From the IMG/VR virus record IMGVR_UViG_2531839665_000022: DNA of 37,232 nucleotides. One strand, written 5' to 3'. Both the position numbers and the translations under genes were made by a program. How positions within the stretch are numbered: the first letter of the stretch is position 1; each line of letters opens with the position of its first letter. Shown here in pieces: positions 23,199 to 28,745 of the stretch. Under the pieces are notes generated by a model. The model was given only the letters and a program-made list of their open reading frames with translations, did not search any database and was not told where the DNA came from. This DNA is from a virus (taxonomy: Duplodnaviria > Heunggongvirae > Uroviricota > Caudoviricetes).

Positions 23199-23449
23199 TG
23201 AAAGAATACCGCTATTCCGGCCCGGCCAGCGGCGTCACGCTGTCGGACGGAACCGAAATCCTGCTCTGGCCGGGGAAGACGGTTTCCCTGCCGGAGGAGC
23301 ATGAATACGTGAAGGTACTGGTGGCGCTGAAGCATCTGACGCCGGTACCAGAAGATACTAAACCCGCCGTCACACCGGCTGTGCAGTCACCAAAGCGCAG
23401 AAGCAGCAGTGACAGCGAAGTGAAAACGGAGGACTCCCATGGCAGCTAA
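23195..23449 (+). CDS. hypothetical small protein
   Basis: 84 aa, overlaps neighbours by a few bp in the late operon. Confidence 0.4.
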   Translation: MMKEYRYSGPASGVTLSDGTEILLWPGKTVSLPEEHEYVKVLVALKHLTPVPEDTKPAVTPAVQSPKRRSSSDSEVKTEDSHGS

Positions 23450-24866
23450 CTATCTGCATGGCGTCGAAACCATTGAGGTGGAAAACGGAGCCCGCCCGGT
23501 TAAAACGGTGAAATCTGCCGTTATTGGCCTGATTGGTACCGCCCCGATGGGGGATGTCAATACGCTGGTACAGTGCCTGTCTGAGAAAGACGCTGCGGCA
23601 TTTGGCAGCCAGTTCACCGGCTTTACCATTCCGCAGGCGCTGGATGCGATTTATGACCATGGTGCAGGCACCGTTCTGGTCATTAACGTACTCGATCCGT
23701 CTGTGCATAAAACCGCTGTGGTCAGTGAGAATGTGTCGTTCGACAAGGCGACAGGCAGAGCCCGGCTGGCTAATCCGGTGGTCGCGCAACTGGTACTGAA
23801 ACCGGACAGCGACGGTCAGCCTTATGTTGAAGGTCAGGACTACTCGCTTGATGCACAGACCGGGGTGATTACTAACCTGGGTAAAAGCATTGCTGCAGAT
23901 GCAACGGTGAAGGCCAGCTATAACTATGCTGATCCGACCAAAGTCACCCCGGCTGATATCATCGGTACCGTTAACGCTGCAGGCAACCGTACCGGCATGA
24001 AGCTGCTTAACGACAGTTTTAACCTGTTTGGCTACTTCGCCAAAATCCTGATTGCTCCGGTATTCTGCACCCAGAACAGCGTCTCGGTTGAGCTTATCGC
24101 CATGGCTGAGAAACTGGGAGCAGTAACCTATATTGATGCGCCGGTTGGTACCACTTTTGCGCAGGCTCTGGCGGGACGTGGCCCGGAAGGCACCATTAAC
24201 TTTAATACCAGCTCTGACCGTGTCCGCCTGTGCTACCCGCATGTGAAGGTATATGACCCGGTGACGAACACGGAGCGTCTGGAGCCACTGAGCCAGCGTG
24301 CGGCGGGCCTGCGTGCCAAAGTCGACCTGGACAAAGGGTACTGGTGGTCATCCTCCAATCAGGAAATTCTGGGGATCACCGGCGTGGAGCGCCAGCTGTC
24401 GGCAATGATTGACGATCCGCAGAGCGAGGTGAACCTGCTTAACGAACAGGGGATCACCACGGTATTCAGCAGTTACGGCAGCGGCCTTCGTCTGTGGGGT
24501 AACCGGACGGCAGCATGGCCAACGGTCACCCATATGCGTAACTTTGAGAACGTTCGCCGCACCGGTGATGTGATCAACGAGTCCATTCGTTACTTCAGCC
24601 AGCAGTACATCGACATGCCGATTACTCAGGCGCTGATTGATGCACTGACGGAGTCGGTCAACGCCTACGGTCGCAAAATGACTGGTGATGGTGCGGTACT
24701 GGGCTTCCGTTGCTGGTTTGATCCGGCCCGCAATCCGGAGACGGAGCTGGCCGCCGGGCACCTGTTGCTGAGCTACAAATATACGCCACCACCGCCGCTG
24801 GAGCGACTGACGTTTGAGACTGAAATCACCTCGGAATACCTGTTAACCCTGAAAGGGGGCAACTGA
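23439..24866 (+). CDS. tail sheath protein
   Basis: 475 aa, position and size of a contractile tail sheath gene, followed by the tube gene. Confidence 0.8.
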   Translation: MAANYLHGVETIEVENGARPVKTVKSAVIGLIGTAPMGDVNTLVQCLSEKDAAAFGSQFTGFTIPQALDAIYDHGAGTVLVINVLDPSVHKTAVVSENVSFDKATGRARLANPVVAQLVLKPDSDGQPYVEGQDYSLDAQTGVITNLGKSIAADATVKASYNYADPTKVTPADIIGTVNAAGNRTGMKLLNDSFNLFGYFAKILIAPVFCTQNSVSVELIAMAEKLGAVTYIDAPVGTTFAQALAGRGPEGTINFNTSSDRVRLCYPHVKVYDPVTNTERLEPLSQRAAGLRAKVDLDKGYWWSSSNQEILGITGVERQLSAMIDDPQSEVNLLNEQGITTVFSSYGSGLRLWGNRTAAWPTVTHMRNFENVRRTGDVINESIRYFSQQYIDMPITQALIDALTESVNAYGRKMTGDGAVLGFRCWFDPARNPETELAAGHLLLSYKYTPPPPLERLTFETEITSEYLLTLKGGN

Positions 24867-25387
24867 TGTCAAAGATTGAGATAAACCGAATCACGAATGC
24901 CAACATCTATCTGGATGGTACTAACCTGCTGGGACGGGCTGAGGAAGTTAAACTCCCCGATGTCTCCATGATTATGCAGGAGCACAAGGCACTGGGGATG
25001 GTGGGTAAGGTGGAACTCCCGGCTGGTTTTGACAAACTGGAAGGCGAAATCAAATGGAACAGCTTTTACCGCGATGCGATGTTGTCTGCCGCGAACCCGT
25101 ACAAGTCGCTGGCGCTGCAGTGTCGCTCCAGCGTCCAGCGCTACAGCTCGCAGGGGCTGATCGACGAAATCCCGCTGGTCACCTTCCTGACAATTATGTT
25201 CAAGAAGAACCCGCTGGGGACGTTCAAACAGCACGAGAACGCCGAGTTCTCCAGTAGCTTCACCTGCACGTATATCAGACAGGTACTGGATGGTGAAGAG
25301 TTGCTGCAACTGGACTATCTGGCCAACATCTTCCGCGTCGGTGGCGTTGATCAACTGACTGACTATCGAATCAATATCGGGGGCTGA
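24866..25387 (+). CDS. tail tube protein
   Basis: 173 aa immediately after the sheath gene, typical size and position. Confidence 0.75.
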   Translation: MSKIEINRITNANIYLDGTNLLGRAEEVKLPDVSMIMQEHKALGMVGKVELPAGFDKLEGEIKWNSFYRDAMLSAANPYKSLALQCRSSVQRYSSQGLIDEIPLVTFLTIMFKKNPLGTFKQHENAEFSSSFTCTYIRQVLDGEELLQLDYLANIFRVGGVDQLTDYRINIGG

Positions 25388-25389
25388 CG

Positions 25390-25671
25390 GTGAGTGTTGA
25401 ACTGACTGACAAAGGAGGGCGATGTGCGTCACTGGGCATGTCAAATGGTACGTGGTTTACCCTCCTTGATATTCCGGGGGTGGAGACCCTCTTTAATACC
25501 CGTAAAACCAATGACCCGATTGACTGCACACGTTCAAAGGCCCGCAAACTGGCCGATTTGATTGAAGCATGGGAGCCGCCCGACCAGTGGTTCTCCGGCA
25601 CCGGCAACTCTGAGGGAAAGGCGCTTCTCATCGCTTTCCTGCGTAACTGCAAGGGTTTTCGCACTTGCTGA
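25390..25671 (+). CDS. hypothetical small protein (uncertain)
   Basis: 93-aa ORF between the tube gene and a strong terminator; no RBS evident; may be 3' UTR instead. Confidence 0.25.
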   Translation: MSVELTDKGGRCASLGMSNGTWFTLLDIPGVETLFNTRKTNDPIDCTRSKARKLADLIEAWEPPDQWFSGTGNSEGKALLIAFLRNCKGFRTC

Positions 25672-25677
25672 CATCAC

Positions 25678-25700
25678 AGGGGCTCCGGCCCCTTCTTTTT
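25678..25700 (+). terminator. rho-independent terminator after the sheath/tube genes
   Basis: AGGGGCTCC-GGCCCCT hairpin followed by TCTTTTT. Confidence 0.6.
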
Positions 25701-25762
25701 AATCCCCTTTAATATCCGTCACGTCCACCGCCAGACATACTGCTCTGAATTTACAAAGGAGT

Positions 25763-26104
25763 ATGATCATGTCACAGACCCAGTCCGATACTTTTACGCT
25801 GTCTTATCCTTTCACCACTGCTGCAGGTACCAGAATTGAACAGATTGAACTGAAACGCCTGACAGTAAAAGACCTGAAGCAGGTGCGCAAAATCAACAAA
25901 GACCCGACAGACTGGGACGAACCACTGATTGCCCGTAGCACCGGTATCCTCCCGGAAGACCTCGATAACATGGATCTTGCCGACTATATGGAGCTGCAGA
26001 AACGATTTCAGAAAATCACTGGGCTGGGCAAGAGCGACAAAAACACTGATGCAGGTGCAGGGCCTGCTGGCGAGATGGTTCAGGTTTCAACCGGGGGAGA
26101 TTGA
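25763..26104 (+). CDS. tail assembly chaperone (P2 gpE-like)
   Basis: 113 aa between tube and tape measure genes, strong RBS AAGGAG; overlapped at its 3' end by a second ORF in another frame. Confidence 0.65.
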   Translation: MIMSQTQSDTFTLSYPFTTAAGTRIEQIELKRLTVKDLKQVRKINKDPTDWDEPLIARSTGILPEDLDNMDLADYMELQKRFQKITGLGKSDKNTDAGAGPAGEMVQVSTGGD

Positions 26105-26186
26105 TGCCCTCGATACTGACGATCTGGAGATGTGGCTGGAGCAGGCTGAAGAGCAAATCAAAAGCGAGTTCGGCGACAATCAGTAA
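25929..26186 (+). CDS. frameshift extension of the tail assembly chaperone (E'-like)
   Basis: Open frame overlapping the chaperone 3' end and extending 82 bp beyond it (ALDTDDLEMWLEQAEEQIKSEFGDNQ); no independent start or RBS; only the part after the shift site would be translated. Confidence 0.45.
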   Translation: MPVAPVSSRKTSITWILPTIWSCRNDFRKSLGWARATKTLMQVQGLLARWFRFQPGEIDALDTDDLEMWLEQAEEQIKSEFGDNQ

Positions 26187-26279
26187 CAACGTATCACTTA
26201 ACAGCCGCCAGTCGCGGCTGTTCTGCATGGGTTTCAGACACTTCCCTTCCGTTTTTTTTGCTTTCAGAGGATAGCCACC

Positions 26280-28745
26280 GTGGCCAGTGAATTTTCAGTC
26301 GGCGTCATTATTGGCGGCATTGTCGGGAGCAGCTTCCGCTCAGCCGTCAGTGGCACCCGACGCGCCCTTGATTCCCTTGGTGATACCTCCCGCCGTCTGC
26401 AGGAACGCCAGAATGCCTTAACCCGGGCAACAGAACGTTATGGTCAACTGGGTTCTTCCCGGATGCAGCATCTCAACAGCGAGTTGCTGCGGGTAAGCCG
26501 CACCATGGAGCAAATTGAACGTCAGCAGCGCCGTCTGTCAGCAGTATCAGCCACCGGTGATGCGTTGAAGGCTAACCGCCTGGCGCTCTATGGTCAGGGT
26601 GCAGAAACCTATGCTATTGGCAGAACGCTGGGCGCACCGGTCATGGCCTCGGTTAAACAATATGCCTCGTTTGAATCACAGTTGCGGGATATCAGTGTCA
26701 CAGGAGACCTGGATGCAAAACAGGAACGTGCAATTGGCCAGGCTATCAGACAGGCCTCGCTGAAGGTTAACCAACTGCAGGAGTCTCTGTTAGGGGGAGT
26801 CGGACAATTAGTTGCTGATGGTATGGCCCCCGAACGGGCAGCAACGTTTGCAGAGATGCTTGGAAAGACCGCTACAGCAACCAAAGCCGATATGACCGAC
26901 CTTGCCAAAATGACTTATGCCTTCAGCGATGCACTCAGAATCACTGATGCGAAAGAACTTGAACAGGCGTTTGGTATTGCGGCAACAGGAGCCAAACTTG
27001 GGTCATTTGAGCTGAAGGATATGGCAAAAGCATTACCCGGTATGGCTAAAGCCTTCGCTGCTCGTGGTATTTATGGAAAAGATGCGATTACCCAGATTGT
27101 TGCCAGTCTGGAGGTCGGTAAAGGTAGTGGCTCTGCAGAGGAAGCGGTCACCAATATGTCCAACTGGCTGGCAGCAATGGGCCGCGGAGATACCATCCAG
27201 AAATATGCTAAAGCCGGGGTGGATTACCAGGGGTCAATGCAGAATTACGTCGCTCAGGGTTTTTCGCAGTACGAAGCTTCACTGATGATTGCCAACCGTT
27301 TTATCGACAGTAAAGGCAAAGCGTTCTTGCAGCAATGGAAAGCTGCAGGAGCAAGAGGCGATCAGGAAGGTCAGCAGAAACTCATGGAGTCATTTGGTCT
27401 GGCTGAGGTCTTTACCGATATTCAGACTGTCAACCATTTACTGTCAATGCGACAGGGCTGGGATAAATACCTTTCCAGTAAGCAGGAAATGAATACTCCG
27501 GCTGCAATGTCTACCCTGGATAAGGATGCTGCAAAGCAGAATGATACGCTTGAAGGTCGCTGGCGCAGAATGCAGATCGGCTTTAATGATTCTGCTATCA
27601 GCATCGGGCAATCCTTGCGTCCGGCTTTGCTCCAGTTGGGTGAAACATTTATTCCTTTAATGGACAGTGTTGGCAAATGGATAGCGGCAAATCCGCAGCT
27701 CGTCAGCAGCACCATAAAGGTTGTGGGCGCATTACTCGCTTTCAGGATGGCCACTATCGGTCTCAAGCTTGGGCTGAATCTCCTTCTTTCCCCCTTTGTA
27801 AGCGTCTGGAAAAATGCTGTTTTACTTCGGGCCAACTGGCTTCGTCTGACGCTCGCACTGGGGGAAGGCGGTAAACTCCGCTGGCTGGTGACAGGCTTTG
27901 GTGCTGTCGCCAGAGGAGCCAGAACACTGGGTGGTGTGCTCTCAGGGGGGCTGGTTCGCGGAATTATGAGCGCCGGGCGTGCCGTTCTCTGGATTGGCCG
28001 GGCGCTGCTGATGAATCCCATCGGTCTCGTTATCACCGCCGTCGCGGCAGCAGCTTACCTTATCTACCGCAACTGGGGCGCAGTCAGTAGCTGGTTTAAA
28101 CAGCGCTGGGCTGACATTCAGGAAGCCTTTAACGGCGGCATCGTGGGAATTGGTAAACTGCTGGTTAACTGGTCTCCGGCTGGTCTGCTTTATAAAGCCT
28201 TTGCGGCTGCGCTGAAATATCTCGGCGTTGATCTGCCGGCGAAATTCACCGACTTCGGTGGTCATCTTATTGACGGGTTGATAAATGGCATCAGAAACAA
28301 ATGGGCGTCACTCAAAACCAGCGTAACCGGAATGGGTGACAGCATCAGTGACTGGTTCAGCGAAAAGCTGGGCATCCATTCACCGAGTCGCGTGTTTATG
28401 GGCTTTGGTGACAATATCGCGCAGGGTGCCGCCATTGGCCTGCAACGGACCACTCCGCTTGCTGCACTGGCCGGGCAGCGCCTGGCCGCTGAAATGACAC
28501 CGGATGTTCCCCGTATCCCGTCGCCGGAAATCATGGCTGCCGGATATTCAGGCCGTGGCGCAACTGCAACCGGCGGTGGAGCGTCTGGCGGTATCCAGGT
28601 CAGCTTTAATCCTCAGTTTTTCCTCAATGGTAAGGAAACCGCAGCGCCTGCCGGGCTGGCTGGTGCCCTGAATATGAGCCTGCATGAGCTGGAAAAAATG
28701 CTGGAGCGTCTGCTGGCTCAGAAACAACGTAAGGAGTACAGCTGA
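26280..28745 (+). CDS. tail tape measure protein
   Basis: 821 aa, largest late gene, coiled-coil-rich N-terminal half and hydrophobic central segments. Confidence 0.8.
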   Translation: MASEFSVGVIIGGIVGSSFRSAVSGTRRALDSLGDTSRRLQERQNALTRATERYGQLGSSRMQHLNSELLRVSRTMEQIERQQRRLSAVSATGDALKANRLALYGQGAETYAIGRTLGAPVMASVKQYASFESQLRDISVTGDLDAKQERAIGQAIRQASLKVNQLQESLLGGVGQLVADGMAPERAATFAEMLGKTATATKADMTDLAKMTYAFSDALRITDAKELEQAFGIAATGAKLGSFELKDMAKALPGMAKAFAARGIYGKDAITQIVASLEVGKGSGSAEEAVTNMSNWLAAMGRGDTIQKYAKAGVDYQGSMQNYVAQGFSQYEASLMIANRFIDSKGKAFLQQWKAAGARGDQEGQQKLMESFGLAEVFTDIQTVNHLLSMRQGWDKYLSSKQEMNTPAAMSTLDKDAAKQNDTLEGRWRRMQIGFNDSAISIGQSLRPALLQLGETFIPLMDSVGKWIAANPQLVSSTIKVVGALLAFRMATIGLKLGLNLLLSPFVSVWKNAVLLRANWLRLTLALGEGGKLRWLVTGFGAVARGARTLGGVLSGGLVRGIMSAGRAVLWIGRALLMNPIGLVITAVAAAAYLIYRNWGAVSSWFKQRWADIQEAFNGGIVGIGKLLVNWSPAGLLYKAFAAALKYLGVDLPAKFTDFGGHLIDGLINGIRNKWASLKTSVTGMGDSISDWFSEKLGIHSPSRVFMGFGDNIAQGAAIGLQRTTPLAALAGQRLAAEMTPDVPRIPSPEIMAAGYSGRGATATGGGASGGIQVSFNPQFFLNGKETAAPAGLAGALNMSLHELEKMLERLLAQKQRKEYS

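Follow-up and report, generated by a model that had tools for sequence, protein, structure and literature searches.

A probable +1 frameshift site, CGA_UUU_C, in the tail assembly chaperone gene of a BcepMu-like transposable prophage of Escherichia coli

The window analysed here, the 37,232-nucleotide DNA of IMG/VR virus record IMGVR_UViG_2531839665_000022, carries a Mu-like, transposable prophage of E. coli with a contractile, P2-type tail. In its tail module, the gene for the tail assembly chaperone is overlapped by a second open frame, and we read the locus as a gpE/gpE+E' (lambda G/GT-type) chaperone pair of a BcepMu-like transposable E. coli prophage, whose two parts would be joined by a +1 shift of the ribosome. 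Judging from the open reading frame boundaries of its relatives, this shift very likely takes place near 25992–26041, upstream of a G-run at the end of the chaperone ORF. Its site is probably CGA_UUU_C (26003–26009, plus strand), which was located by conservation and ORF-boundary bracketing and lies about 90 bases upstream of the G-run.

Near-identical E. coli chromosomes are annotated, over the first 25 kb, with an integrase-catalytic-domain transposase, an ExeA-family protein and a DUF935 protein, and the related isolate PhiKM is classified in Bcepmuvirus. Of 5,426 complete E. coli genomes, about 646 have matches to window positions 1–25000, some of them holding up to 4 copies; a match of at least 80% identity is found in 642 of the 5,426. 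The tail module comprises a sheath gene (23439–24866), a P2 FII-like tail tube gene (24866–25387, plus strand; Pfam PF04985, E=2.1e-53), a 93-aa ORF between tube and chaperone (25390–25671; hypothetical in RefSeq), the zero-frame chaperone ORF (25769–26104, plus strand; Pfam PF10109 Phage_TAC_7), which is the analogue of P2 gpE and BcepMu gp41, and the +1-frame extension analogous to E' (26010–26186, plus strand; 58 codons, RKSLGWARATKTLMQVQGLLARWFRFQPGEIDALDTDDLEMWLEQAEEQIKSEFGDNQ, then TAA). Downstream follows the chaperone's partner, the tape measure gene (26280–28745, plus strand; Pfam PF10145, E=1.9e-15), called 'phage tail tape measure protein' by PGAP, and beyond it lie gpU-, gpX- and gpD-like genes. 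Tube and tape measure genes flank two overlapping ORFs, as in the lambda G/GT paradigm.

The chaperone ORF in its longest form spans 25763–26104, with codons starting at positions 2 mod 3, 113 amino acids and a TGA at 26102–26104. It matches PF10109 ('E, or 41 or 14') with E=4.6e-22 and 78.3 bits against a cut-off of 25 bits, and this match, together with its position between the tube and tape measure genes, identifies it as a genuine tail assembly chaperone. Of two in-frame ATGs, at 25763 (113 aa) and 25769 (111 aa), the second is probably the start, giving 111 rather than 113 residues, because the Shine–Dalgarno (SD) sequence AAGGAG at 25756–25761 lies 1 nt from the first and 7 nt from the second and is properly spaced only for the latter. 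PGAP likewise annotates near-identical E. coli genomes with a 'phage tail assembly protein' of 111 aa from ATG 25769. An NCBIfam scan of the chaperone, the 45-aa ORF that opens within the other frame and the fusion of both parts gave zero matches. The overlapping frame, with codons starting at positions 0 mod 3, has no stop from 25929, or from further upstream, until a TAA at 26184–26186. A sequence-only reading of this DNA had described the overlap of these two frames and the net +1 (or −2) shift needed to join them, and both statements were confirmed, as was its placing of a G5 run: CAACCGGGGGAGATTGA occupies exactly 26088–26104, with the five Gs at 26093–26097 (plus strand), where the zero frame reads ACC GGG GGA GAT TGA and the +1 frame CCG GGG GAG (Pro-Gly-Glu).

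That the +1 frame is more than a chance overlap follows from where it varies. Close relatives comprised 78 sequences from IMG/VR and 22 from GTDB genomes, and entropy was computed over the 53 that are unique. Mean entropy at zero-frame positions 1, 2 and 3 was 0.30, 0.19 and 0.82 in the chaperone core and 0.48, 0.09 and 0.02 in 26051–26101. As zero-frame position 1 is +1-frame position 3, variation in the latter segment falls on third positions of +1-frame codons (0.48) and hardly on the first two (0.09 and 0.02), which indicates that purifying selection acts on the +1 frame from about 26051 onwards, starting 14 or more codons before the G-run. In this stretch ahead of the run the +1 frame encodes TLMQVQGLLARWFRFQ, whose residues are preserved while their codons change synonymously: FRFQ is spelled TTC AGG TTT CAA, TTT AGA TTT CAG, TTC CGG TTC CAG or TTT CGG TTT CAA, for which the zero frame reads VQVS, V-stop, VPVP and VSVS, respectively. 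The same residues align with translated residues of P2 E', and hhalign matched the +1 extension to P2-type E' with 92.5% probability and E=4.9e-7. By entropy and by profile comparison, the extension is a conserved coding region and a homologue of P2 E', and the view that the downstream frame continues the chaperone held up in this respect. Its GpE-like domain (PF06528, Phage_P2_GpE; 26067–26165, plus strand) scores below the Pfam cut-off of 23 bits, at 15.6–16.5 bits (E about 0.006–0.011); elsewhere the same model gives 25.6 bits in relative L229, which passes, 19.9 bits in L105 and 78.7 bits in the P2 control.

Between the chaperone core and this domain, a linker (26012–26050) is poorly conserved in both frames. 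Directly after the TTT of the proposed site, the zero frame (ITGLG) is conserved and one +1-frame residue varies between L, R, P and Q, so that the close relatives alone pin the site no finer than about 50 nt. Their bracket runs from −14 (L090) to +33 relative to the TTT, that is, window 25992–26041. Its downstream limit is set by a common allele (P0061, loci L047/L048; 914 contigs) with a TAG at the equivalent of 26039–26041 and a short chaperone of 90 aa. The change that creates this TAG is silent in the +1 frame (ACC to ACT), and it shows the tail of the zero frame to be dispensable.

A finer bracket was obtained from more distant loci. Searches with E' profiles added about 160 further loci, some of them distant, and annotated phages served as additional comparators; frames were assigned by homology and not by ORF length, which misleads in GC-rich loci. 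Among 267 loci with both parts, E' lies in the +1 frame in 261, is fused in frame in 5 and lies in the −1 frame in 1. Bracketing used the 140 unique +1 loci and assumes a homologous site in all of them. Relative to a conserved Phe codon, the closest openings of the +1 ORF in these loci lie 8 nt upstream (17 loci; for example GTG AAG ACC CGA TTT CTG, whose +1 frame contains a TGA) and the closest zero-frame stops 21 nt downstream (L225 and L236; TTT CGC ... GCG TGA), which leaves −8 to +21 nt around this codon as the interval permitted in all 140. In L287 the zero-frame stop lies 18 nt downstream of the TTT, and in the metagenome locus L279 the permitted interval is only 20 nt, with the homologous codon inside it.

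This Phe codon closes the TAC motif D..[DE].{7}F and is TTT in 140 of 140 loci, followed by C in 140 of 140; the amino acid after it varies (Q, L, R or H). Within the shared interval, TTTC is the only invariant stretch among 41 representatives less than 90% identical to one another. The preceding codon is CGA in 127 of the 140, and the other 13 read TTT_CGN. Elsewhere in these loci, the share of TTT among Phe codons is about 50% at low GC and about 18% where the GC content is 0.58 or higher, a rough count since long ORFs in GC-rich DNA include spurious frames. In the 53 close relatives, the wobble positions of CGA TTT C are invariant and the flanking codons vary. The same arrangement and motif recur in distant hosts, namely in a Salmonella prophage (49% identical), in Ralstonia phage YO107_2 (37%) and in the Pseudomonas phages Komp_PAO1_1 (32%) and Bise, and Burkholderia BcepMu and phiE255 share the arrangement with UCC/GCC_UUU_CGC. 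The overlap thus contains a slippery sequence conserved among relatives, in the form of an in-frame UUU followed by a pyrimidine (CGA TTT C, 26003–26009), and UUU_Y is documented to be prone to +1 shifting in bacteria.

The sequence-only reading had placed the shift at the G5 run, and while the direction that it proposed agrees with our results, the site does not. There, tRNA-Gly would re-pair from GGG to GGG by +1, or from GGA to GGG by −2 as in Mu, with ...VSTG(G)EIDALD... as the predicted product. The run permits perfect re-pairing, the zero frame of the window's lineage does extend through it, and Mu gp41, a member of the same Pfam family, reportedly has a verified −2 shift at CGG GGG CGA. 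Only 19 of 139 unique +1-type relatives, however, have a run of at least five Gs with the zero frame open through it; in 51 the zero frame stops upstream of the Pro-Gly/Ser-Glu codons, and in 67 the run is absent (CCG AGT GAG, with a TGA inside those codons). The run is also broken up by CCT and CCA GGGG, variants that leave the amino acids of the +1 frame as they are. In the commonest allele, a TAG precedes it and the chaperone has 104 aa (GAG GTG GTT TAG ATT TCA GCC GGG GGA G), a form also found in Klebsiella phage KP12. Both the Pfam GpE model and the profile–profile comparison have the conserved E' domain begin before the run, which thus lies inside the domain, whereas the shifts of Mu and P2 fall about 17–20 residues before it; a shift at the run would skip the upstream +1-frame residues on which selection acts, and this counts against it. 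We regard a shift at the G5 run as quite improbable. Two loci (L078 and L094) are fused in frame at the run, which may mean that a product joined there is tolerated or may reflect indel errors.

A less improbable though still unlikely alternative is a +1 shift elsewhere in 26010–26050, at sites that differ by lineage. Two A-runs, AAA_A (26012–26015) and A5 (26039–26043), would allow +1 re-pairing of tRNA-Lys, and a site in the poorly conserved linker is compatible with the observed selection. Yet neither run is conserved, even in relatives 84–88% identical, the widespread P0061 allele stops the zero frame at 26039, and the invariance of the CGA TTT C wobble positions would be left unexplained. 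The A5 run (plus strand; GAC AAA AAC) was rejected as a candidate: relatives read GAC GAA AAC, AAC CAG GGC or ACC GAA AGC, and the run falls on the margin of the bracket that the TAG allele sets, or outside it. That there is no recoding at all, the +1 ORF being translated alone (45 aa from ATG 26049) or being an untranslated relic, appears very improbable. PGAP does annotate a separate 45-aa 'GpE family phage tail protein' CDS from ATG 26049 in some genomes, and phiE255 and Klebsiella phage records hold small separate E' ORFs; but relatives have ACG, AAA, ACA or ATT in place of this ATG, which is not preceded by an SD sequence, +1-frame conservation reaches upstream of it, the strong purifying selection is incompatible with a relic, and the annotation of P2 gives E' only as a fusion product.

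Transcriptional slippage, in which an RNA polymerase indel at a homopolymer would supply the shifted mRNA, seems extremely improbable. Public assemblies do hold in-frame fusions at the G5 and A5 runs (P0010 and P0013), which are best explained by homopolymer sequencing errors, and the conserved site is only T3, while productive transcriptional slippage takes runs of about seven or more A or T. In-frame fused chaperone-E' entries comprise P0010, P0011, P0013, P0066 and P0100 as well as L078, L094, L104 and L247. They have 138 aa or similar lengths, are joined at the G5 run, at the A5 run or elsewhere, and mostly come from Logan/ENA read assemblies; we judged them to be homopolymer or assembly errors and set them aside as evidence. 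L104, from a complete Apirhabdus genome, is fused 5 codons upstream of the TTT, and L247 just before the zero-frame stop.

For a shift at CGA_UUU_C, we infer the following course. Most ribosomes would translate the zero frame to the TGA at 26102 and produce the short chaperone, and a minority would shift by +1 at 26003–26009. Either the P-site tRNA-Phe (anticodon GAA) would re-pair from UUU (26006–26008) to its Watson–Crick cognate UUC (26007–26009), or, after the awkward, I:A-decoded CGA, Phe-tRNA would bind UUC directly, out of frame. Both routes would give an identical peptide. The next codon would be AGA at 26010, and the +1 frame would then be read to the TAA at 26184, resulting in a fusion of 82+58 = 140 aa (138 aa from ATG 25769), ...ELQKRF|RKSLGWARATKTLMQVQGLLARWFRFQPGEIDALD...GDNQ. 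Its GpE-like C-terminal domain presumably acts like lambda gpGT and P2 gpE+E', connecting the tape measure protein, coated by the chaperone, with the protein of the tail tube, to which the E' extension is presumed to bind.

Since E. coli tRNA-Phe (GAA) pairs with UUU through a G:U wobble but with UUC through G:C, the +1 move would improve pairing. In the window, UUU is followed in the A site by CAG, the more frequent of the two Gln codons of E. coli, and thus no reason for a pause is apparent. The spacing between SD-like element and shift codon in prfB is 3 nt. A prfB-type site would combine an SD-like element at that spacing with a stop codon in its A site. The window does not resemble such a site: its A-site codon is CAG, and its subgroup has no SD-like element at this distance from the UUU (the upstream sequence is CAGAAA). 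In L157, L199, L224 and L225, GGAG or AAGGAG does occur exactly 3 nt upstream of the UUU (−7 to −4). RNAalifold, applied to 25 diverse sequences from −6 to +110 nt of the TTT, found no conserved downstream RNA structure, only a 5-bp helix of −1.2 kcal/mol without covariation, and single-sequence folds gave no common structure. With neither a conserved RNA structure nor, in the window's subgroup, an SD-like element, the efficiency of shifting is probably low, as is typical of G/GT-type systems (about 3% in lambda, somewhat higher in P2). CGA is decoded via I:A wobble and is among the few codons able to replace GCG in the Ty3 +1 site; its retention in 127 of the 140 loci, GC-rich genomes included, suggests that it contributes to shifting. 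Simple re-pairing of tRNA-Phe may not be the whole mechanism, because the metagenome loci L279, L281 and L283 (at about 640–760) have GTG TTG CGG in place of GTG TTT CGG, with both ORFs intact, and UUG_CGG bars re-pairing of tRNA-Leu; this subclade is the main point that the model does not explain. An SD-like GAGGTG lies upstream of the codon, and L279 has its zero-frame stop immediately behind the CGG.

The closest parallel is gpE/gpE+E' in the FETUD operon of P2. Both loci lie between the tube and tape measure genes, encode a PF10109 TAC domain followed by homologous E' extensions, and have a Phe UUU as shift codon at the end of the TAC domain. A linker precedes the GpE domain in both; counted from the shift Phe, the domain begins at residue 20 in P2, whose shift site is known from experiment, and at 16–20 in this clade, and when both profiles are begun at the shift Phe, hhalign aligns residues 8–47 of this clade with 12–51 of P2. 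In contrast, P2 shifts by −1 on U_UUU_UUG, whereas the window has its extension in the +1 frame, CGA_UUU_C and no T6 run, and its E' stays below the Pfam cut-off, unlike that of P2. A −1 heptamer lies on a Phe codon of the same region in P2, Carl1, phiCTX and Wolbachia WO (GGT TTT TTG), in Smp131 (GGT TTT TTT) and in Vibrio Valp1 (G GGT TTT A). The shift Phe comes 14 residues after the DxxD motif in −1 types such as P2 and 11 in +1 types, and MAFFT sets the P2-type Phe 3 residues further from DxxD. We therefore do not claim an identical alignment column; the −1 and +1 types appear to use a Phe codon in the same region. By this analogy, the window locus would work like P2 E/E' but with a different recoding solution.

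Mu gp41 belongs to the same Pfam TAC family, its extension lies in the same relative frame (+1/−2), and Mu, like the element described here, is transposable. The −2 frameshift that yields gp41-42 from the gp41 gene is said to have been verified by Xu, Hendrix and Duda in 2004; in Mu, the G5 run used for the shift precedes the E'-like domain by about 17 residues, whereas the G5 run of the window is inside the domain, is not conserved and in relatives often lies downstream of the stop. With lambda gpG/gpGT, the locus shares its position and, on our reading, the formation of two products in a fixed ratio, with the chaperone on the tape measure and the extension on the tube; lambda differs in shifting by −1 on G_GGA_AAG, in lacking sequence similarity and in having a siphovirus tail.

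The core UUU_C, with re-pairing of tRNA-Phe to UUC, is shared with bacterial UUU_Ynn +1 sites (an E. coli argI error and Yersinia YopN-TyeA). The influenza PA-X site is UCC_UUU_CGU (PMC3498833), and the amalgavirus +1 motif is UUU_CGN (PMC5052127). High-GC members of the present clade, BcepMu among them, have UCC_UUU_CGC, almost the PA-X cassette, and as in PA-X no downstream structure is evident. The known UUU_Y and UUU_CGN sites belong to cellular genes or eukaryotic RNA viruses, the present candidate to a phage tail chaperone; in its commonest form, the UUU is also preceded by CGA and followed by a codon that is not rare (CAG or CUG). BcepMu itself (AY539836) has the same genus-level tail module, with gp41 as the TAC protein (TCC TTT CGC) and gp42 as the +1-frame E' ORF. 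Its record (L293, 5603–6364) instead pairs different ORFs, gp42 as a lambda-G analogue and gp43 as a slippage-derived T part; on the present reading, gp41 and gp42 would be the E and E' pair joined by +1. The BcepMu gp43 ORF is rich in Arg, Gly and Ala and may be a GC-rich artefact.

The sequence-only reading was right that most known tail-chaperone shifts are −1, but it overstated how unusual any other shift would be, as the reportedly verified −2 shift of Mu illustrates. Reviews list −1, −2 or +1 for tailed phages, +1 is thought very likely in the haloarchaeal virus HSTV-2, and annotated cases in SEA-PHAGES genomes number 350 forward versus 2,368 backward. Non −1 recoding of tail chaperones is already established, and the new part would be +1 at UUU_C for the gpE/E' family; the literature covered, which was incomplete, yielded no account of +1 recoding for this clade of chaperones. 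We suggest, tentatively and at somewhat less than even odds, that CGA_UUU_C (alternatively NNN_UUU_CGN) is a dedicated +1 signal of the P2/BcepMu-type contractile-tail clade, spanning Enterobacterales, Burkholderia, Ralstonia and Pseudomonas and undescribed for phages. Such a signal would dispense with a stop codon or rare codon in the A site, with an SD element and with RNA structure, and inosine:A wobble on CGA would prime tRNA-Phe or the incoming Phe-tRNA for the UUC register. It would be a bacterial counterpart of the influenza PA-X and amalgavirus signals; the gpE family would have solved the two-product problem at one Phe-codon region by both −1 and +1, with Mu's −2 G-run, elsewhere in the gene, as a third solution.

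The predicted long chaperone product, essential in lambda and P2, is missing from the annotation of this prophage family, the 642 E. coli genomes and the BcepMu type phage included: it is omitted or split off as the 45-aa 'GpE family' ORF, and RefSeq E. coli entries are without the fusion. For phage KS10, a search by its authors for repeated runs of A, T or G failed to reveal a slippery sequence (PMC2628397); a TTT_C site would be invisible to a search of that type, which seeks homopolymer runs. KS10 is absent from the matches to the window's chaperone family. The position of a homopolymer run appears to be a poor guide to the shift site, and ORF-boundary bracketing across relatives a better one. 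The more than 140 natural variants of this putative +1 site without a stop codon may offer a model for failure of frame maintenance at UUU_C together with CGA.

A few further features of the locus were noted. The 93-aa ORF between the tube and chaperone genes matches DUF7739 at 25.8 bits, short of the threshold of 27, and P2 lacks a gene there. Between this ORF and the chaperone gene, at 25678–25703, is a GC-rich hairpin, AGGGGCTCCGGCCCCT, followed by TCTTTTTAAT; it resembles an intrinsic terminator, here inside the tail operon. The gap that separates the E' stop from the tape measure gene holds, just behind the stop at 26201–26221, an 8-bp hairpin, ACAGCCGC-CAGTC-GCGGCTGT, which is kept in relatives with different loops and some changes in the stem (for example CAGCCGCATCAGGCGGCTG and GCAGCCGGTAACGGCTGC). 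This second hairpin is without a T-tract, and a T8/T7 length polymorphism occurs 30 nt downstream of it (26252–26259).
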